Part shown: piece by piece, positions 30 through 59,969 of the stretch
How the letters are laid out: every line of letters starts with the position of its first letter
Numbering within the stretch: the stretch's first letter is position 1
Source: Eledone cirrhosa
Lineage: Eukaryota
DNA: 64,000 nt
Reading direction: 5' to 3'
Assembly (NCBI GenBank): GCA_964016885.1
Contig: OZ024742.1
Location: forward strand, 236,220,001 to 236,284,000
The notes under the pieces: generated by a model
The model's database searches: none
What the model was told of the DNA's origin: nothing
Seen by the model: only the letters and a program-made list of their open reading frames with translations
Program-made: the position numbers and the translations under genes

Positions 30-98
30 TATTTTATTATGCGCATTTCAAAAACAAACATCATCATGCAATAATATTTGTGTTTTCATCAGATAAAA
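30..98 (-). ncRNA. Type I hammerhead ribozyme motif, family A (minus-strand copy of the 33066 motif; element spans ~1-222)
   Basis: Reverse complement reads TTTTAT CTGATGA AAACACAAATATTAT...GATGTTTGTTTTT GAAA TGCGCA TA ATAAAA. Confidence 0.75.
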
Positions 99-9485: not shown

Positions 9486-9562
9486 GTATATATTATGAAG
9501 AGAGAAGAAACATTTAGATATAATTAGTAATAAAATGTATCATACCTAAACTGCTCCTAGAT

Positions 9563-9652
9563 TCCTCGACTGCGTAGTTTCGTGGCATAAACAAAAACAA
9601 TACATCATAAAGATATAGAGTCCTTGCGAGGTCTGCCGACTTATCAAGAGGA
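9563..9652 (-). ncRNA. Hammerhead, family D (U3-A8 core variant), one stem III substitution
   Basis: Reverse complement TCCTC TTGATAA GTCGGCA...TGCCAC GAAA CTACGCAG TC GAGGA. Confidence 0.7.
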
Positions 9653-9870
9653 TACCTAATTTTACTAGTCTCAAGAACGCGTCTACACGACGTGAGAAGG
9701 AATCCCAAAAGGCGGAGGGGGAGATAGTCACGCGATATAACGGTCGAGAAACAGAGCTAAGCCTCTTATAACCCCGAAGAAAATACCACGGAGGCGGAGG
9801 GGGTATTTATATCGAAGCCGTAGAAGAGGTGGTGAATGCATCCGCACCCAGAGACTAGTAAAATGAGGTA

Positions 9871-9960
9871 TCCTCTTGATAAGTCGGCAGACCTCGCAAG
9901 GACTCTATATCTTTATGATGTATTGTTTTTGTTTATGCCACGAAACTACGTAGTCGAGGA
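9871..9960 (+). ncRNA. Hammerhead, family D (U3-A8 core variant)
   Basis: Stem I TCCTC/GAGGA; core TTGATAA; stem II GT-C-GGCA/TGCC-AC; GAAA; palindromic stem III ACTACGTAGT; GTC cleavage triplet. Confidence 0.8.
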
Positions 9961-10463
9961 ATCTAGGAGCAGTTTAGGTATGATACATTTTATTACTAAT
10001 TATATCTAAATGTTTCTTCTCTCTTCATAATGTATTTTTAACTCTGATACTGGTTCAGTCTAGTTCAACCGGATTGGTCTGTCCCAGTCATTCATTGAGC
10101 AACATCGGTGAAGTTGTCACCCTTAACTCACGGTTGGGTGCGGATGCATTCATGTATATGTGTGTGTCCACATGTATCTGTGTGTTTCTAAATATATTGT
10201 TAATAACTCCCTCTGGTCGAGCAACCTTTGAAGTGTGGGGACTGCTGAAAAGCTTCCATTACTCATACTTCTCGCCCCCTTCACCACCTCTTCTACGGCT
10301 TCGATATAAATACCCCCTCCGCCTCCGTGGTATTTTCTTCGGGGTTATAAGAGGCTTAGCTCTGTTTCTCGACCGTTATATCGCGTTACTATCTCCCCCT
10401 CCGCCATTTGGGATTCCTTCTCACGTCGTGTAGACGCGTTCTTGAGACTAGTAAAATGAGGTA

Positions 10464-10553
10464 TCCTCTTGATAAGTCGGCAGACCTCGCAAGGACTCTA
10501 TATCTTTATGATGTATTGTTTTTGTTTATGCCACGAAACTACGTAGTCGAGGA
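10464..10553 (+). ncRNA. Hammerhead, family D (second tandem unit)
   Basis: Identical to 9871-9960, 593 bp downstream. Confidence 0.8.
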
Positions 10554-10759
10554 ATCTAGGAGCAGTTTAGGTATGATACATTTTATTACTAATTATATCT
10601 AAATGTTTCTTCTCTCTTCATAATGTATATATGTATATATGTATATACATATATATATATACACACATACATATATATAACGTGTAAAAAGATAGAAGGC
10701 TAAACAATACAAAATGGACTGTAAGATGAGGTAACGAAAAGTAAGTTACCTGGTAATCT

Positions 10760-11230
10760 TTGTTTTATTTTTTGTTGTTCTTTTTCTGTCCAATATTTCG
10801 GGACCCAAAAGTCCCTTGTTCAGGATTTAAGCAACTTTCAATGGAATCTTTGGGATTGTTGTCTCTGGATTGCTTTTTAGATAGTTATCTACGCAGTGAA
10901 GGGCCGGAGTATGCCAATCGTATGTCCAGTCATTGTTTGCGGATAGCCCTGCAGATAGCTCTGGAGATAGTTGTGGTTATGCTTTCGCTGAAATGTGGTA
11001 ATTTCACGGAGCAGGTTTTAGAGGAGGTCTTATGCCTGCGGCGCCTCCAATTCTTAAGACGATTCACTGCGGATGTTGAGTATACGTTCGTCTTCAGTAC
11101 ATCTATGAAGAGAGCAGTGTGAGTGATCTGGTCCTCTGTCTTGCCGCATTTATTCCGGATACTCGTGTGTTCATCATAGTTAAGATGTAAGAAGTTAAAG
11201 CACTCTACGTGATGCAAATCATTCAACGTA
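10760..11230 (-). pseudogene. Penelope-like element (PLE) ORF remnant, RT thumb/linker region
   Basis: Translation FIDVLKTNVYSTSAVNRL...VKLPHFSESITTTISRAI...RKQ*LDIRLAYSGPSLRR*LS resembles the PLE pattern L..NGYP / LPY.SE.IS..I.R.L....IRV....P.L; lies just 3' of the HHR at 11328-11367. Confidence 0.5.
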
Positions 11231-11269
11231 GGTCTGGTATCCCGTAGCTGGTGCAGGAATGGAGGTAAA

Positions 11270-11640
11270 TATTTATTTAAAAAGAACAGAAGGTCGGACT
11301 TGAAATATTCTTTTAATGTTGCAAAAATACAATACGTATTTCTATGACCTAGTTACATCATCAGATCCTTATTTAAGACATTGTCGCTGTCATCAGGTGT
11401 GGGCTGCAAAAGATAAGTGATAACCATCTTACCTAAAAAATAACATCGAATCAAATATATTCTCCATTCTCTGTTTGCCATAATCCTGTTATCGGCTATC
11501 AAATATTGCAATCCACACCCGAAGACGTCACCAAAATCTTACGTCATGATCTGATGATGTAACTAGGGCGTAGAAATACGTATTGTGTTTTTGCCACATT
11601 AAAAGAATATTTTAAGTCCTGCCTTCGGCTGTTTTTAAAT
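11270..11640. ncRNA. Inverted pair of hammerhead-bearing pseudo-LTR-like segments, family E (11328-11367 -, 11548-11587 +)
   Basis: gat CTGATGA tgtaactagg(g/t)c(g/a)ta GAAA TACGTA TT in both arms; arms ~100 bp, diverged. Confidence 0.6.
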
Positions 11641-17418: not shown

Positions 17419-17424
17419 ATATAT

Positions 17425-17810
17425 ATACAATAATTAGAGGTACACAGATATATGTGTATACATACATATACATGCATATATATACATACATTTTTCACAA
17501 GTATGTGAGATTGTGTGTTGTCAACCTTAACCAGTGTTGCTCTATGACTATGAGAGACAAGATAAACTGTACAGTCGGGAATTTGAAGAAAAAATGGGTA
17601 TTTATTTATGTCTAATATTTCTTCTTTCTTTATAATGTATTACATAGCTCTGATATAGAGTCAATTTAATTATTCCAATTATCTTGTCTCTCATAGTCAT
17701 AGAGCAACACTGGTTAAGGCTGACAACACACAGTCTCACATACTTGTTAAAAATGTATGTGTATATATGCATGTATATGTATGTATACACATATATCTGT
17801 GTACCTCTCA
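17425..17810. repeat. ~135-bp inverted repeat enclosing a copy of 18341-18418
   Basis: gaggtacacagatatatgtg...ctatgagagacaagataa versus ttatcttgtctctcatag...cacatatatctgtgtacctc. Confidence 0.8.
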
Positions 17811-17820
17811 TTATTGTCTC

Positions 17821-18008
17821 GGTGAATTGGCAGTATCGGTAGAGGGTCGGACGCCATGCTTTGACGCATAGAGTTACGGCCCTTGCCATTCTGAGTTCAA
17901 ATCCCGCCGAGGTTAACTTTGGCTTTCATCCTTACGGGGTCGATAAAATATAGTACCAGTAATACGCTGGGTAATTGCTGGCCTTGTGCCAAAAGTAGAA
18001 ACAATTAT
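17821..18008 (+). mobile_element. SINE family 1, full length
   Basis: TGGCAGTATCGG (A box) ... GAGTTCAAATCC (B box) ... gtagaaacaattat. Confidence 0.85.
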
Positions 18009-18013
18009 TGTCT

Positions 18014-18414
18014 ATAACTCCCTCACGGTAGAGTAACCACGGAAGTATAGTGACTGCTTTCAAGCTAATACTATATACCCTTCTAGTCTTCCTTATGTAG
18101 CCTCTGCATCGTATTAATATCCCCTCCGCCTTCTGTGATATTTTTCATTGCTACAAAGGATTTAGCCCCATTTCTTGACCACTGTATCACGTGATAAGGT
18201 CTCCCTCCGCCTTTTCGAGATTCTTTCGCGCGGTGCAGACCTGTTTTGAAATTTTTCCATCAGGTATTCCCTTGAAAAGTCGGCAAACCTCACAAAAATG
18301 TTACATCTCTATGATATAGGATTATTGCATAGTAATTACGTAACTGTACAGTCGGGAATTTGAAGAAAAAATGGGTATTTATTTATGTCTAATATTTCTT
18401 CTTTCTTTATAATG

Positions 18415-18418
<4 letters not shown>
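18014..18418 (+). mobile_element. Diverged relative of family D with HHR at 18266-18359
   Basis: Collinear with the D unit (ataactccct, cccctccgcc twice); ATTCCC TTGAAAA GTCGGCA...AC GTAA CTGTACAG TC GGGAAT. Confidence 0.7.
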
Positions 18419-18451
<33 letters not shown>

Positions 18452-22269: not shown

Positions 22270-23151
22270 TTACTCTTTGAGTCACAGTCATTGATGTTAG
22301 TTAACTGGAAAGTTTGTTGAAATGAATATCAAGCCACTACCTGCAGCCTCAGATATTAAGGACGTATCGGAGGGTTCTTGCTGTTCCCAGCAAGCATGCC
22401 TTTTGAAGCGTTCCAAAAAGCGTGAAGGGGCCAATTTTCTTTAACCATCCCTGGAAACTTTTTGAGATAGTCCCTAGTGCGCCTATGACAATCGGGATCA
22501 CTTTGACTTCATGGCAGTTCCAAATCCTTTTTACCTCCCACTTTAAGTCCTGGTATCGGTTAATTTTCTCCCTCTCCTTCTCTTGCACTCTCGTGTCGAA
22601 TGGGCAGGCCACATCCACAATCAGCCACGATCTTTTTCCCTTGTCCAAAACCACCAGGTCAGGTCTATTGTGTTCCAGTTTCTTGTCCGTCTGTATCCTA
22701 AAATCCCATAGCACCTTCACCTGATCGTTTTCTATCACCGACTCTGGCTTATGCTCATATCACTTCTCAGAATGTGGTAAATTGTTTACTTTGCATAGGC
22801 GCCAGTGGATCACCCTGCCCATCACATTATGTCTCCAGCCTTTATAGTGAGTCTGGGCTAGGTGTTTACACTCGGATACAATGTGAGCCACAGTCTCCTC
22901 TCTCTCTCTCCACAGATCCTACACAGTGGGCTAGCCTCCTCCTTGTAAATATGGTGTTTCGCCCACTTCGTTTTGAGGGCCTGCTCTTGCGCAGCCATTA
23001 GCATTCCTTCTGTAGCCTTTTTAAGGTCTCCTCCTTTCAACCAGTTCCATGTCTGTGGATCTCTAAATTCAGTTTTCTCAAAGAAAGCACTATGAAGGGA
23101 GTTTTCATGAAGATTGCTCTTTCTCCTTGTTGTTATTTCCTCCTTGGACAT
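22270..23151 (-). mobile_element. 5'-truncated R4/Dong-like non-LTR retrotransposon (CCHC + restriction-like endonuclease)
   Basis: LKKATEGMLMAAQEQAL, CRICGERE, HNRPDLVVLDK..IVDVACPFD..EKINRYQDL; bounded by (TAA)n tracts; frameshifted. Confidence 0.85.
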
Positions 23152-23175
23152 TTATTATTTTTATTATTATTATTA

Positions 23176-24024
23176 CAGTTGCATTTATCTTGCTTTATGT
23201 TCATACGAGTTATCACCAAGTCACAACCAGTGACCTCAAGAGACAACAAGGTCCGCCATGTTCAAGAAAGAACATACATATTCACACATGCATCTTTAGT
23301 GTTTAGACTTGTGATGTACTTATATTGACAGAATCTTCCTTAGTATATGGGCAGTTCCCATTAGTACTATCTTTTGTATTTCTCCTATACGCGGGTTTCC
23401 TGGGATTTGCGATAAGTATTCATTAGACCCCTTAGGTATCATTCCCAGAGCGCCTACAACCACTGGTATTGTTTTAGTTCTCAATTTCCACATTTTTCCA
23501 ATTTTTATCTCCAGGTCCTTATACTTGCTCAATTTTTCAAATGTTTTTATAGATACATTCTTGTCTATTGGAACAGACATATCAATTAGCAGGCATACCC
23601 TCTTTTGAAAGTCTTTCAATATTATATCAGGTCTGTTTGCATCTATTTTTCGGTCTGTTTGGATGCTAAAGTTCCACAAGATTGAGATGTGATCTTTTTC
23701 AAGTATGGGAGGTGGTTGATGCTCCCACCAATTCTTTTGATGGGGCAGGTCAAAATGCTTACACATTATCCAATGTATGTATTGTGCAGCTCTGTCATGC
23801 CTGTTTAGGTATTCGGTTGGAGCTATAGGACTGCACATTGAAATTATATGGTCAATGGTCTCTGGTTGTTTTTTGCATACACGGCATAATGGGCTGCACC
23901 CATTTTTTATTATGTTGGCTTGGTAATTTTTTGTTGGCAGACACTGATCTTGTGCCGATATAATCAGTCCTTCAGTCTCCGATTTCAGTCCAGAGGATGC
24001 CAACCACTGATGGGTTAAAGTTTT
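23176..24024 (-). mobile_element. Second, distinct 5'-truncated R4/Dong-like element with open C-terminal ORF (23320-24024)
   Basis: LKSETEGLIISAQDQCL, CRVCKKQPETIDHIISMC, RHD, NRPDIILKD..LIDMSVPID..EKLSKYKDL; 5' end joins (TAA)n at 24040-24120. Confidence 0.9.
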
Positions 24025-24037
24025 GTCATCATCATCA

Positions 24038-24124
<87 letters not shown>

Positions 24125-25658
24125 CTATGTATATATGTATGTATGTATATATATATGTGTGTGTGTATGTGTGTGAGTGTGTGTATATGTATGTATGTGA
24201 GTGTGTGTGTACACACTCACAGTGTGTTCTCCTGTCGAATTAGTGATTTGATCAACTGAATGCCTACTCGTTTGAATTATCATTCAGAGTGGCTGAGTAT
24301 TCCTCACACGTCAATACAATTAATCAATAAAATTAATAACAGTCTAATAAAAATAGTACTAGCGTCTATGTTTATACAGTCATGCATACACATGGAATAC
24401 ACGCATGTACATAAACAACACCCAAACATGTATTCACTTTGGTTCCGACGTGGAATGTTAAGGAAAATTCTATCAACGGAACAGTCTGATGGGAAAATTA
24501 ACAGGCAAGTGACTGCGTTACACAGACACGTGTACTTTTAACGTATTATTTTTCAAGGAAACTTAGCGTGACACAGGTTATGGCAAGGCTGGCCCTTTGA
24601 ATTATAGGTTCCACTAATTTTTGCTCGCTGAGTGGACTGGCGTAATGCGAAATATAGTGTCTTGCCCAAGGACACAACGAGCCGTTGGAATCGGTCATTA
24701 GACAAACACTTTTACCTTCACTCAACATGCAAACGCACACGCACACATTCACAAATCAAAGTTGCAATACATAAACTATCAGAGCACATGGATGCATATA
24801 TTTACTGAAACATACACAGGAATGGACCTCCATTGGTATTAACGATGAGTATTCCAGTTGTTCGTCCCGAAAACAGCCTCCTCATGAAATTAACGCGTAT
24901 GGTTTTGAATATTCCATGGACGTGTTTACATTTAGCGTAATTCTCAGTGATATTTAGTGTGACAAAGCATGACCTTTAGATTACAGGTAGAATCCATCCA
25001 ATGGACTTTCAAATAGTTTCCGTCTACCCAGATTTACTCACAAAGCTTGGGTCAGTCCGAGGCGATGGTAAATGACACTTGTCTTAGATGTCATACACTG
25101 GCATTGACCCGGGATATGATGACAAAGCGATTTCCTTAATGATTTGGCTACGCTGCATCTGCACACACACACACACACACATACACACACACATAAAAAT
25201 ATACCCCCTCCACACACGCACACACATTTATGCATACACATACCTGCATGCATGCATAAAATACATAAACACACATACACATTTACTGAAACACTCAGAC
25301 ACACACATACAGGAACACACACACATACACACACATACACACATACACACTCACACACACGTACACACTCACACATTCTCACACACAGGGAGAAAGAGAG
25401 ATGGGGGAAAGAAAGGAAGAAAGAAAGAGAGAAAGAGATGAATTATTAGATGGATAGAGAGGTTGGAATGATATTCAAACACATTCATAGTGTTGAGAAG
25501 AAAGTTGGTCAAGTAGTTTGTTATTAAAGATGGTATTATATGATAAGAATATAATAGTGAAATAGTGTCAAGAAGTATATTAAGATACTAAATACTAAAT
25601 ACAGAAACTGTTTTTTCAAAGGCGGCTTAAGTGGTTTACATTGAGCCTTAATAATAAT

Positions 25659-33065: not shown

Positions 33066-33136
33066 TATTTTATCTGATGAAAACACAAATATTATTGCAT
33101 GATGATATTTGTTTTTGAAATGCGCATAATAAAATA
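33066..33136 (+). ncRNA. Type I hammerhead, family A (element ~32910-33165; related piece at 3390-3482)
   Basis: Stem I TATTTTAT/ATAAAATA; CTGATGA 33074-33080; long stem II; GAAA 33117-33120; palindromic TGCGCA; TA cleavage site. Confidence 0.8.
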
Positions 33137-44439: not shown

Positions 44440-45112
44440 TGTTGGAAATTCCACAAATATAAATGTTTATAACTGATTCAGAGCACTCGACAGTTTTCTG
44501 GAGTAAATATTCAATGATATTAAATAAATGGAAACTATATTTATAAAACCATATTTATTCTATTATATATATTTCAAGGGTACCAAAAATGTTGGTACGC
44601 TTTCATCAGATAAAATACAAAGTGTGTTTTATAAATTTTGACATAGCCAAGGAAACATACCTTATCAGTTGAATTTACCCAAGGAAAATTCAACTGATAA
44701 GGTATGTTTCCTTGGCTATGTCAAAATTATGCTTTCATCAGATAAAATACAAAGTGTGTTTTATAAATTTTGACATAGCCAAGGAAACATACCTTATCAG
44801 TTGAATTTACCCAAGGAAAATTCAACTGATAAGGTATGTTTCCTTGGCTATGTCAAAATTATGCTTTCATCAGATAAAATACAAAGTGTGTTTTATAAAT
44901 TTTGACATAGCCAAGGAAACATACCTTATCAGTTGAATTTTCCTTGGGTAAATTCAACTGATAAGGTATGTTTCATTGGCTATGTCAAAATTTATAAAAC
45001 ACACTTTGTATTTTATCTGATGAAAGCGTACCAAAATTTTTGGTACCCTTGAAATATATATAATAGAATAAATATGGTTTTATAAATATAGTCTCCATTT
45101 ATTTAATATTAT
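44440..45112. mobile_element. Family C head-to-head pair with iterated fold-back centre (132-bp period)
   Basis: HHRs at 44556-44617 (-) and 45009-45070 (+); gctttcatcagataaaatac at 44599, 44731 and 44863. Confidence 0.85.
45009..45070 (+). ncRNA. Type I hammerhead, family C, intact core
   Basis: TATTTTAT CTGATGA AAG-C-GTACCAAAA/TTTTGGTAC-C-CTT GAAA TATATA TA ATAGAATA. Confidence 0.85.
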
Positions 45113-45114
45113 TG

Positions 45115-45151
<37 letters not shown>

Positions 45152-45791: not shown

Positions 45792-45858
45792 TATTTTATT
45801 ATATATATTTCGGAGGTACTGTGGTGTTTTTTTCAGTACGTCCTCATCAGATAAAATA
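45792..45858 (-). ncRNA. Type I hammerhead, diverged family C relative
   Basis: Reverse complement TATTTTAT CTGATGA GGA-C-GTACTG...CAGTAC-C-TCC GAAA TATATA TA ATAAAATA. Confidence 0.85.
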
Positions 45859-51454: not shown

Positions 51455-51735
51455 TAATGTATAATAAACAATACATTATAATTACCTCATTACCAGAGGT
51501 TTCCCGAATAAGACGAATACAAGAAACGTCCGCATTCGTTCATCAGAAAAGGCAATTTAAAACATAGTGAAATATTTGAAAAATCTACTCAAGAAAGGCC
51601 AAGATTTTTCAAATATTTCACTGTTTTAAATTGCCTTGTCTGATGAACGAATGTGGACATTTCTTGTATTCGTCTTATTCGGGAAACCTCTGGTAATGAG
51701 GTAATTATACTGTATTGTTTATTATACATTAAATA
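51455..51735. ncRNA. Family M inverted pair with hammerheads at 51482-51555 (-) and 51631-51704 (+)
   Basis: TTGCCTTGT CTGATGA A CGAAT...ATTCG G GAAA CC TCT GG TA ATGAGGTAA. Confidence 0.7.
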
Positions 51736-51981: not shown

Positions 51982-52303
51982 CAATGATATTAATAAATGG
52001 AAACTATATTTATACCAGGGGACAAGTCCCCCATCCCACTTTTTCAAACGTCTATGTCTTATTCTTTGTTTATTTGAAATAAATTCTTTTTAACCTTATT
52101 TTCTTTATATCTGAACTTCATTTAAATATATAAAATTTCATTAGCGTAAAATGTTACTTATGTGATAGGGTCCGGGAAAGACACCATAAGCAATTCATGC
52201 TCCTTTAAGAATCAACAAATGTTGGTTTGTCCCCTTCACATTTTTAAGGCAAACGAGGCCCCTGAATATATATATATATCTTTTTTTTCCATTACCATTA
52301 CAA

Positions 52304-52390
52304 GGCGTCTGATGAGCCGCGGTTTACAGAGTCGGGTCAGATCGATACAGATCGAACCTTGAGCTGATCAGTGGCGAAACGCGCGTCACC
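52304..52390 (+). ncRNA. Hammerhead, family N (3' half also at ~39169-39200 -)
   Basis: CTGATGA GCCGC...GTGGC GAAA CGCGCG TC ACC; palindromic ACGCGCGT. Confidence 0.7.
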
Positions 52391-52439: not shown

Positions 52440-52496
<57 letters not shown>

Positions 52497-52500
<4 letters not shown>

Positions 52501-54423
52501 TATGAAGAGAGAAGAAACATTTAGATATAATTAGTAATAAAATGTATCATACCTAAACTGCTCCTAAATTCCTCGACTACGTAGTTTCGTGGCATAAACA
52601 AAAACAATATATCAAAGATATAGAGTCCTTGCGAGGTCTGCCGACTTATCAAGAGGATACCTCATTTTACTAGTCTCAAGAACGCGTCTACACGACGTGA
52701 GAAAGAATCCCAAAAGGCGGAGGGGGAGATAGTCACGCGATATAACGGTCGAGAAACAGAGCTAAGCCTCTTATAACCACGAAGAAAATACCACGGAGGC
52801 GGAGGGGGTATTCATATCGAGGCCGTAGAAGAGGTAGTGAAGAAGGCGAGAAGTATGAGTAATGGAAGCTTTCCAGTTGTCCCCACACTTCAAAGATTGC
52901 TCGACCAGAGGGAGTTATTAATATATTTAGAAACACACAGATACATGCGGACACACACATATATACATGAATGCATCCGCACCCAACTGTGAGTTAAGGG
53001 TGCCGACTTCACCGATGTTGCTCAATGAATGACTGGGACAGACCAATTCAGTTGAACCAGACTGAACCAGTATCAGAGTTAAAAATACATTATGAAGAGA
53101 GAAGAAACATTTAGATATAATTAGTAATAAAATGTATCATACCTAAACTGCTCCTAAATTCTTCGACTACGTAGTTTCGTGGCATAAACAAAAACAATAT
53201 ATCAAAGATATAGAGTCCTTGCGAGGTCTGCCGACTTATCAAGAGGATACCTCATTTTACTAGTCTCAAGAACGCGTCTACACGACGTGAGAAAGAATCC
53301 CAAAAGGCGGAGGGGGAGATAGTCACGCGATATAACGGTCGAGAAACAGAGCTAAGCCTCTTATAACCACGAAGAAAATACCACGGAGGCGGAGGGGGTA
53401 TTCATATCGAGGCCGTAGAAGAGGTAGTGAAGAAGGCGAGAAGTATGAGTAATGGAAGCTTTCCAGTTGTCCCCACACTTCAAAGATTGCTCGACCAGAG
53501 GGAGTTATTAATATATTTAGAAACACACAGATACATGCGGACACACACATATATACATGAATGCATCCGCACCCAACTGTGAGTTAAGGGTGCCGACTTC
53601 ACCGATGTTGCTCAATGAATGACTGGGACAGACCAATTCAGTTGAACCAGACTGAACCAGTATCAGAGTTAAAAATACATTATGAAGAGAGAAGAAACAT
53701 TTAGATATAATTAGTAATAAAATGTATCATACCTAAACTGCTCCTAAATTCTTCGACTACGTAGTTTCGTGGCATAAACAAAAACAATATATCAAAGATA
53801 TAGAGTCCTTGCGAGGTCTGCCGACTTATCAAGAGGATACCTCAACTCCCTCTGGTCGAGCAATCTTTGAAGTGTGGGGACAACTGGAAAGCTTCCATTA
53901 CTCATACTTCTCGCCTTCTTCACTACCTCTTCTACGGCCTCGATATGAATACCCCCTCCGCCTCCGTGGTATTTTCTTCGTGGTTATAAGAGGCTTAGCT
54001 CTGTTTCTCGACCGTTATATCGCGTGACTATCTCCCCCTCCGCCTTTTGGGATTCTTTCTCACGTCGTGTAGACGCGTTCTTGAGACTAGTAAAATGAGG
54101 TATCCTCTTGATAAGTCGGCAGACCTCGCAAGGACTCTATATCTTTGATATATTGTTTTTGTTTATGCCACGAAACTACGTAGTCGAGGAATTTAGGAGC
54201 AGTTTAGGTATGATACATTTTATTACTAATTATATCTAAATGTTTCTTCTCTCTTCATAATGTATTTTTAACTCTGATACTGGTTCAGTCTGGTTCAACT
54301 GAATTGGTCTGTCCCAGTCATTCATTGAGCAACATCGGTGAAGTCGGCACCCTTAACTCACAGTTGGGTGCGGATGCATTCATATATATATGTGTGTGTC
54401 CGCATGTATCTGTGTGTTTCTAA

Positions 54424-54430
<7 letters not shown>
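52497..54430. mobile_element. Family D retrozyme-like locus 2: ~2.3 head-to-tail 590-bp units on - (52497-53843) fused to one monomer on + (53844-54430)
   Basis: attatgaagagagaag at 52499, 53089 and 53679; HHRs at 52570-52657, 53160-53247, 53750-53837 (-) and 54103-54190 (+). Confidence 0.9.
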
Positions 54431-54490
<60 letters not shown>

Positions 54491-54551
54491 AAATAAGACA
54501 TCTTATTTTATTATTTTTATAAAATTCTCCATCGTAACTAAAACAACGAAC

Positions 54552-54622
<71 letters not shown>

Positions 54623-54699: not shown

Positions 54700-55053
54700 A
54701 CTAACGTTTCAATATCAGATACAATGTAAATAAAGGAAGACTGAAGGAGGGGGAGGGGGCATTTAGTTGAGAAAGAGTAATTAAGCTATGGTGGGCAGGG
54801 TAGTGGTAGTAGTAGGGGTGGATAAGGCAGTGTGAAAGAATGGGATTGTGGGTGGTAGTGTCCATAGCCATAGTATTTTAACTGGTCAGGTGATGAATGT
54901 GAACGTATGTGTATAGGTGGGGTGGTGGTGAAAAGAGTGGTGGGATTGGTAAGATAAAGTGGTGGATGGGTGGAATATAGATATTTATATAATTACACTT
55001 GTACATAAATATACATAAGCACAAACATATCTACACATGCATAAAGCTAAATC

Positions 55054-56921
<1,868 letters not shown>

Positions 56922-57804: not shown

Positions 57805-57865
<61 letters not shown>

Positions 57866-57870
<5 letters not shown>

Positions 57871-58518
57871 TAAAGTGGTCCTCATCAGTGATCTTCCAAC
57901 CATCACAGGTATTTCTTCGCTTTAAAGACCATATACCTCCGGTTGGTGCGAGCAACGGCTAAAAAAAGTCGTTGGGACACGTAAATAAAGGGGACAGCGA
58001 GAGTGTAAACAAACAAAGATGGTGAAGCAACGAAAAATGAGGAAGAACGAGTCAAGTCCCAAATTTCCATGAATATAAGTTCGGTGAAATCGTGAACGAG
58101 AGAGAATAAAGACCATCAAACCTGGTTGTGTGAGCAAGGAAGGAATTCCGTACAGGTCTAACGGGAGGAAGAAGGAATCTAGTCTGTGAATTCGGTCTAG
58201 ATTCCTTCTTCCTCCCGTTAGACCTGTACGGAATTCCTTCCTTGCTCACATTCCAACCAGGTTTGATGGTCTTTATTCTCTCTCGTTCACGATTTCACCG
58301 AACTTATATTCATGGAAATTTGGGACTTGACTCGTTCTTCCTCACTTTTCGTTGCTTCACCATCTTTGTTTGTTTACACTCTCGCTGTCCCCTTTATTTA
58401 CGTGTCCCAACGACTTTTTTTAGCCGTTGCTCGCATCAACCGGAGGTATATGGTCTTTAAAGCGAAGAAATACCTGTGATGGTTGGAAGATCACTGATGA
58501 GGACCACTTTATTCATAT
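57866..58518. repeat. Large near-perfect inverted repeat (~315-bp arms) between (TA)n tracts
   Basis: atgaataaagtggtcctcatcagtg...ggaatctag / ctagattcc...cactgatgaggaccactttattcat. Confidence 0.9.
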
Positions 58519-58550
58519 GTAACTCATTTGCAACCACGCAGCACGTTTAT

Positions 58551-59910: not shown

Positions 59911-59969
59911 GCTGTTATATATATTTCAGTGATAACCATTATTCAACAGCTATGCCCTCATCAGACAGC
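59911..59969 (-). ncRNA. Type I hammerhead, family P
   Basis: Reverse complement GCTGT CTGATGA GG..ATAGCTGTT/AATGGTTAT..CT GAAA TATATA TA ACAGC. Confidence 0.75.

Follow-up and report, generated by a model that had tools for sequence, protein, structure and literature searches.

Metazoan non-LTR retrozymes, described from coral, mussel and axolotl, are non-coding tandem repeats with one type I hammerhead ribozyme per unit (Cervera and de la Pena 2020, PMC7229834). According to that description they have a GC content below 50%, occur in thousands of copies, are self-paired as predicted circles and have Penelope-like elements (PLEs) as their proposed driver. PLE-driven retrozyme movement through circular RNA is a published hypothesis (PMC7229834; bioRxiv 2026.07.22.740005), which as presented in these sources rests on shared hammerheads, co-occurrence and pLTR similarity. 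The Eledone cirrhosa repeat analysed here agrees with these elements in its head-to-tail units with a type I hammerhead, its absence of protein-coding capacity, its GC content (42%) and its self-paired predicted circle. Judged by its sequence, it is a variant of the non-LTR retrozyme in which the marks of PLE insertion are unusually clear, and this kind of element is already known. Its 590-nt unit exceeds the 170-400 nt given in PMC7229834 and lies within the 51-972 bp of bioRxiv 2026.07.22.740005. Metazoan retrozymes carry a canonical loop-loop hammerhead, whereas the Eledone unit has a U3-A8 core and a 58-nt stem II. The self-blocking by a downstream hairpin that is predicted below is atypical for metazoan retrozymes as PMC7229834 portrays them. 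RNA and circles were demonstrated for the retrozymes of that study, whereas the two-site PLE ends and inversions of the Eledone element are read from DNA. The plant LTR retrozyme (LTRs, type III hammerhead, PBS/PPT and 4-bp TSD) is not matched, as the Eledone hammerhead is type I and there is no LTR-internal-LTR layout. A literature search that covered few subscription papers found no report of this family, of a cephalopod retrozyme or of a two-end rule for retrozymes.

PLEs themselves are reported to form partial tandems and head-to-head inversions with a one-sided tail of 30-40 bp (Craig et al. 2021, PMC8557442; PMC3846280), and how PLEs come to form these structures is treated in the literature as an unsettled question. 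The anole Penelope/Poseidon element PAc is described as having two internal reverse transcription start sites, two fixed 3' ends downstream of its hammerhead, a tail and an AT-rich target, both strands of which are cut and extended (Frangieh et al. 2024, PMC11167929). The Eledone element shares the two fixed ends and AT-rich target of PAc and the partial tandems, head-to-head inversion and one-arm tail of PLEs, but it has no ORF, its tail measures 166-168 nt rather than 30-40 nt and its arrays reach about 8 units. PLE-type multicopy head-to-tail insertions are also known for non-autonomous Chlamys elements such as MRC1, from a clade biased to microsatellites; most Chlamys elements are described as being without canonical hammerheads (PMC8557442). 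The hammerheads of Schistosoma PLEs (PMC4209133), from which a U3-A8 core is also reported, and other natural U3-A8 cores, described as active in vitro (PMC3088659), have the same core covariation, short stem I, bulged stem II and palindromic short stem III as the Eledone motif. As described, the Schistosoma motifs are mostly single and heterogeneous, whereas the Eledone motif occurs once per unit of a homogeneous tandem, its stem II has a long extension and its 5' flank is predicted to form a pseudoknot.

The window is a 64,000-nt stretch of contig OZ024742.1 (assembly GCA_964016885.1, positions 236,220,001 to 236,284,000). The first-pass annotation, made by a model from the letters of the window, had described a non-coding repeat of about 590 bp that occurs some 2.3 times on the minus strand and once inverted, in almost identical units, and this description holds throughout (Table 1). 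The head-to-tail array at 52497-53844 has a period of 590 and comprises 1348/590 = 2.28 units; its 760-nt overlap with itself contains one internal mismatch (99.87% identity). The inverted arm (588 nt, 2 mismatches) lies head-to-head with the main arm and is ordered as unit positions 171-590 followed by 1-168. (TA)n borders the array and inverted arm on either side. The longest stop-free stretch in three tandem units is 86 aa in the sense and 71 aa in the antisense direction, and no tRNA gene was found within the 64-kb window. The 590-bp unit was missed by TRF, which had a period limit of 500, and the direct-repeat family search of the window was dominated by TA. Each unit also has two conserved GC-box-like motifs, for which a promoter role is conjectural.

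Table 1. Features of the retrozyme loci and other hammerhead-like motifs of the window.
Feature	Position	Strand	Remarks
Second locus	9492..10626		inverted piece 9492-9836 (-), plus arm 9851-10626, three hammerheads
Third locus, old subfamily	17422..18423		inverted B arm 17422-17565, plus arm 17564-18423
(TA)n target tract, left	52444..52496		TRF 52444-52497, 27 copies; sequence
Unit 1, 590 bp	52497..53086	-	3' end is fixed end A, ...CTCTTCATAATGT followed by ATAT
Unit 2, 590 bp	53087..53676	-	G515A at 53162
Unit 3, 5'-truncated	53677..53844	-	unit positions 423-590; G515A at 53752
Inverted arm	53844..54431	+	3' end is fixed end B, ...TTTCTAAATATATTA followed by TATA
(TA)n-rich target tract, right	54432..54619		TRF 54424-54619
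Two CCCTCCGCCT motifs per unit, GC-box-like	53954..54045	+	near-invariant over three subfamilies
Hammerhead, unit 1	52570..52664	-	core 52646-52652; predicted cut after 52575
Hammerhead, unit 2	53160..53254	-	stem I mismatch, GUC/GAAG
Hammerhead, unit 3	53750..53844	-	stem I mismatch, GUC/GAAG
Hammerhead, inverted arm	54096..54190	+	intact; predicted cut after 54185
Hairpin A	54186..54257	+	fold z -4.37; begins at cut, ends ~6 nt before end A
Hairpin B	54355..54418	+	fold z -4.77; ends ~13 nt before end B
Hammerhead-like motif	38-92	-	CUGAUGA core
Hammerhead-like motif	33068-33136	+	CUGAUGA core
Hammerhead-like motif	44564-44609	-	CUGAUGA core
Hammerhead-like motif	45017-45062	+	CUGAUGA core
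Hammerhead-like motif	45800-45850	-	CUGAUGA core
Hammerhead-like motif	51640-51705	+	CUGAUGA core
Hammerhead-like motif	52300-52390	+	CUGAUGA core
Hammerhead-like motif	59916-59964	-	CUGAUGA core

The hammerhead of the unit is of type I, with a stem I of UCCUC and GAGGA, a core of UUGAUAA (the U3-A8 variant, compared with CUGAUGA), a bulged stem II and the strand GAAAC-UACGUA-GUC. The 3-8 pair, G5 and A6, A9, G12, A13 and A14, the NUH and the three stems required of this type are all present. One hammerhead per unit had been annotated, and a type I motif does occur in each, but the core is not canonical and the cut site GTC/GAGG (the slash marks the predicted cut) is present only in units 1 and 4. 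Units 2 and 3 read GTC/GAAG; this variant, G515A, disrupts the third stem I pair, and two of the four hammerheads at the locus are damaged in stem I. G515A is rare, with 40 exact matches genome-wide against 5,981 for the core 22-mer. Rfam returned no hammerhead match for 52500-54420, and none for the whole window among the matches listed (150 of 287), which were mostly miRNA models on simple repeats. The canonical C3-G8 form of this hammerhead family, sought as an ancestor, had 0 matches in the genome.

The genome surveyed comprises 3.0 Gb in chromosome-scale contigs. A genome-wide copy census, a check proposed in the first-pass annotation, gave 5,981 exact matches to the core 22-mer (3100+2881) and 6,419 to a relaxed core pattern; because the reversed control gave 0, the repeat is not due to chance. 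This amounts to about 6,000 units with a hammerhead in the genome. At 1.9 matches per locus, roughly 3,000-4,000 loci are estimated, and 129 were sampled: 25 from DNA and protein searches (non-redundant top matches, including both retrozyme loci of the window), 53 stretches of contig C1, 16 multi-unit arrays and 35 loci from the G515A list. Within this sample only the 53 C1 stretches, which span the first 100 pattern matches on C1 (two clusters counted elsewhere), are near-unbiased. Cores are intact in 143 of 154 cases (78 loci), and unit periods are 585-607, mostly 590-595. Among the arms of 79 arrays, a figure that counts one stretch with a duplicated array twice, 61 of 120 are longer than one unit and consist of tandem unit along their whole length. 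A TA-rich flank is found on at least one side of 78 of the 79 arrays and on both sides of 61; as the flanks are (TA)n, a target-site duplication is unreadable. One stretch (L060:2975-6826) contains an identical inverted array twice, 2,554 bp apart, a local duplication. The repeat had been called recent, which is true of the subfamily at 52497-54431 and does not extend to other subfamilies, whose identity falls to 66%.

The 3' ends of arms lie at two fixed sites, each just 3' of a long hairpin (z -4.4 and -4.8): A, at unit positions 588-590, is 78 nt downstream of the predicted cut, and B is another 166-168 nt along. The 61 head-to-head arrays include 56 with one A and one B end, 1 with two A ends, 0 with two B ends and 4 that are not assignable, an excess of A+B over free choice of ends (P 4e-16). 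The sole A+A inversion is the second locus of the window. In the old subfamily arms also end at A and B, with 13 A and 12 B junctions to TA over 30 loci. The 5' ends show no fixed position: 2 of 120 fall within 508-518 and none at 513, the cut. Because they do not pile up there, copying does not usually stop at the end of an unligated cut monomer.

The same anatomy is found in autonomous PLEs of this genome. PLE-A (909 aa, RVT_1 and GIY-YIG) ends at 541/581 in (TA)n, with one of each in 6/6 inversions in which both ends are seen, and PLE-B ends at 1077/1118, with one of each in 9/9. Both families are young and TA-targeted, with tails of 40-41 nt, a quarter of the retrozyme tail; PLE-D likewise has two ends. 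The retrozyme and the intact autonomous PLEs of one genome therefore follow the same two-site, one-of-each insertion rule. The features of a PLE-mobilised element (two fixed 3' ends, one-arm tail, partial tandems, head-to-head inversions and microsatellite target) are all present in the retrozyme, and because this footprint matches that of the resident autonomous PLEs and of the anole PLE, mobilisation by PLE machinery is strongly inferred. The first-pass suggestion of copying in trans by a PLE reverse transcriptase gains considerably from this agreement. The 590-bp element has no RT and GIY-YIG ORF between pLTRs of the kind that defines an autonomous EN+ PLE. No sequence in common was found between the young, mid or old unit and PLE families A, B, C, C2 and D; matches were limited to neighbouring true copies and TG-rich stretches, and the D and C2 flanks were covered to 1.5 kb. 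Non-autonomous Chlamys elements, in contrast, generally share 3' sequence with their autonomous partner as described in PMC8557442.

The genome has at least five young PLE families, whose intact ORFs measure about 760-1200 aa and which occur in many near-identical copies (L037, L172, L194, L204-L211 and L266-L273). Read by eye, the PLE-A terminal repeat (L037:5740-5900, minus strand) has a hammerhead-like motif with a CCGAAGA core of U4C type, and the PLE-D terminal repeat (L205-L211, downstream of the ORF) has a minimal CUGACGA motif. PLE matches near the sampled loci are separate insertions except at L248 (1433-3292, in the G000:C5:84190600 stretch), 1 of the 129 loci. Here, in one block between (TA)n borders, a retrozyme arm and a short inverted piece are joined to a PLE-D fragment (600 nt of mid-ORF, 97.7% to the family) that abuts the broken arm. 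The join could be an RT template switch, in which case PLE-D would be indicated as the driver, or the result of a deletion that came later.

Young and old units are 66% identical (374/564). Over 12 aligned rows from about 3-4 subfamilies, 95% of the cells of the proposed hammerhead structure are paired. Five pairs are double-changed: two in stem I, one in the stem II extension and those of the palindromic loop, which changes from ACGU to GUAC. These amount to about 5 compensatory events, counted in related rows from which the structure was itself derived and whose old members were chosen partly by the core pattern. In these alignments the hammerhead fold is kept by compensatory change across subfamilies that are 66% identical, and such retention of core and stems suggests that the ribozyme fold is under selection. 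A predicted pseudoknot, of a general kind that PMC3088659 describes in hammerheads, would join UGAGGU in the 5' flank to ACCUC(A/G) of stem II; it is 98.6% paired and has no double-changed pair.

Hairpin A occurs in every full unit, and GAGGA can pair with UCUUC within it. Similar folds were obtained for hairpin A in 3/3 other subfamily copies folded (z -1.5 to -3.3) and for hairpin B in 2/2 (z -2.7 and -2.1). In the fold models the 3' strand of stem I can be drawn into hairpin A, which predicts cleavage during transcription and self-blocking afterwards. The free MFE fold of the isolated hammerhead is no better than shuffles (z -0.13), and a hammerhead-compatible fold costs 1.1 kcal/mol alone and 2.4 kcal/mol with hairpin A. 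The constrained fold of the G515A unit was disregarded, as it forced a non-canonical pair. When the monomer is folded as a circle, in which 62% of the unit is predicted to be paired, young and mid units are more stable than shuffles in the sense direction only (z -5.2; antisense -0.8 and -0.2); a single old-subfamily unit beats shuffles on both strands (sense z -4.1, antisense z -3.3). Related hammerheads are often slow according to several reports (PMC6765202; PMC4209133; PMC11167929; bioRxiv 2026.07.22.740005). Weak cleavage is given for PLE hammerheads (PMC4209133), and cleavage of 1/9 dimers for Xenopus retrozymes (bioRxiv 2026.07.22.740005).

Variation among the units bears on the template from which they were copied. 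Unit divergence is 0.33% within arrays and 2.26% between arrays, and the nearest other array is as close as an array's own units (median 0.34%). At common polymorphic sites the two arms carry the same allele in 446 of 458 comparisons, where about 34% discordance would be expected if they were independent, and 11 of the 12 disagreements are matters of indel placement. Both arms of an insertion derive from one sequence variant. Furthermore, in 38 of the 97 arrays with more than one unit, at least one rare allele is fixed across all units that cover its site (55 alleles with 63 occurrences, 25 of which span both arms), and L084 carries four changes, private within the sample, in 7-8 units. Rare variants fixed through whole arrays imply that multimers are rebuilt from a single unit, and the template is likely to be an RNA of one unit that is probably circular. 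With site A only 78 nt from the cut, arms as long as 7.6 units could be made from a linear cut monomer only by jumping. A circle, as proposed in PMC7229834 and PMC4209133, accounts simply for such arms, and end-to-end jumping would give the same bottleneck. Variants confined to a subset of units occur in three arrays (52497-54431, L215 and L217), one of those in L215 being common to both arms; they fit a heterogeneous multimer template as well as later DNA duplication or conversion. In sequencing runs X1 and X3, which may be of RNA or DNA, the element assembles as one contig (620 and 621 nt, the period + 30 nt) that forms a closed cycle in the assembly graph. This cycle is not counted as a circle, as trace-depth tandem DNA gives the same result.

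The fixed variants also differ in kind from singletons. A>G accounts for 13/55 array-fixed variants and 5/172 singletons (Fisher 9e-6), and A>G and T>C combined for 22/55 and 17/172, which indicates an origin other than DNA mutation after insertion. In L082 there are four A>G changes, three of them in hairpin A. The ratio of A>G to T>C is 13:9 among rare fixed alleles (P 0.04) and 26:18 when common polymorphisms are pooled with them (P 0.004), but it does not differ significantly from that of singletons (P 0.11) and is 14:12 for lineage changes, and G>A is on the high side as well (14:8). As this strand asymmetry is modest, A-to-I editing is only a lead to the source of the fixed A>G changes, alongside RT error and selection on structure.

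The preferred explanation, given a probability of about 0.6, is a protein-free non-LTR retrozyme of some 6,000 units that borrows the RT/GIY-YIG protein of a PLE and uses a single-unit, probably circular, RNA as template. Multimeric RNA would arise by read-through or internally promoted transcription, and the U3-A8 hammerheads would cut it during its synthesis, with help from the predicted pseudoknot or from dimers joined at the palindromic loop of stem III. Hairpin A would then sequester stem I and protect the product, and the 590-nt monomer would be closed by a host ligase. The PLE protein would nick both strands of a (TA)n tract and start synthesis from the two nicks at A and B, immediately 3' of the two hairpins. 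The template would be copied round for 0.1 to about 7.6 units, after which the two cDNAs would join head-to-head. A bolder version takes the arrays as a record of rolling-circle reverse transcription of one self-blocked hammerhead circle, on which the PLE protein would prime both target strands at the two sites marked by hairpins, with A-to-I edits of this double-stranded RNA fixed in every unit and driving subfamily turnover. This version is speculative and on present evidence unlikely; if true, it would link the circles of retrozymes with the way PLEs move and account for the tandems and one-sided tails of PLEs. The thousands of young copies provide a measurable sign of single-unit copying. 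The 590-nt RNA, candidate start sites, variant ribozyme and intact candidate enzymes make up a compact in vitro system, which could test a circular against a linear template and the role of the hammerhead.

A PLE could also have copied uncut linear multimers, or jumped between linear RNAs of one locus, with a hammerhead that is slow or acts as a binding or processing signal and with circles that are absent or a by-product. The insertion anatomy would be identical, and possible sources exist in single arms of at least 7 units (L259). According to PMC11167929 the anole PLE mainly used uncut RNA in vitro and the hammerhead was dispensable for insertion. The L215 variants common to units of opposite arms, and G515A in both units 2 and 3 of the window locus, would suit such a template. 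Linear inheritance, however, only shortens arrays and cannot spread a new change to all 7-8 L084 units in both arms; singleton alleles recurring in two arrays number only 5 among 128; and the ribozyme core and stems have been kept, with compensatory changes, as the subfamilies diverged. Linear templates are accordingly considered somewhat unlikely. Growth in DNA, in which retrotransposed monomers would later have been multiplied and homogenised like a satellite (by slippage, unequal exchange or conversion), has been proposed for Xenopus (bioRxiv 2026.07.22.740005) and would give adjacent units such as the two with G515A the look of a local duplication. It is improbable here, where arrays are short and dispersed, 5' ends are random while 3' ends are fixed, the 25 fixed-variant cases cover both inverted arms and A>G and T>C are enriched among fixed variants relative to singletons.

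The first-pass annotation had also named an outcome that would count against a retrozyme, namely that the unit occurs only as the pseudo-LTR beside a full PLE ORF, the arrays being 5'-truncated ends of an autonomous PLE. The PLE-type ends, the U3-A8 hammerhead shared with Schistosoma PLEs (PMC4209133) and the match of Xenopus retrozymes to pLTRs reported in bioRxiv 2026.07.22.740005 would all agree with such an origin, and the sample represents 129 of roughly 3,000-4,000 loci. In none of these 129 does an arm run 5' into the end of a PLE ORF, about half of the arms pass one unit and continue into more unit, and the flanks of the five PLE families have no homology to it. Truncated PLE ends are therefore rejected as an account of these arrays; the idea is largely refuted and can be given very little weight. 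The retrozyme is nevertheless likely to be of ancient pLTR origin.

Two further copies of the element lie in the window. At the second locus, for which a 593-bp period had been noted, two plus-strand hammerheads are indeed 593 nt apart and the sequence belongs to the same family as 52497-54431 (95-98% identical), but its tandem part is limited to about 1.3 units, beside an inverted piece of 345 nt. A decayed PLE ORF fragment beyond it (10700-11350, minus strand; 52% to PLE-A residues 692-793) is a separate insertion. The third locus, absent from the first-pass annotation, is about 66-73% identical, with a decayed hammerhead core at about 18272. Its plus arm is interrupted by a SINE-like insert (17821-18010), an element with 17 BLAST matches in the window. 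This SINE-like element stands at the same point beside end B in 3/30 old-subfamily loci (the third locus, L107 and L117), either as an amplified cargo-bearing unit or at a preferred target site.

At least eight more hammerhead-like motifs of other families, with a canonical CUGAUGA core and a palindromic stem III, occur in the window (Table 1). Several of them sit within short inverted repeats, and they are probably the ends of other PLE or retrozyme insertions. Near-perfect inverted repeats of 225 and 268 nt are found at 44504-45122 and 57861-58521, accompanied by a 132-nt tandem in which hammerhead-bearing palindromes alternate. Judged by their motifs, fragments at 22349-24216 and 55000-56450 resemble other retrotransposon ORFs and a mariner-type transposase.
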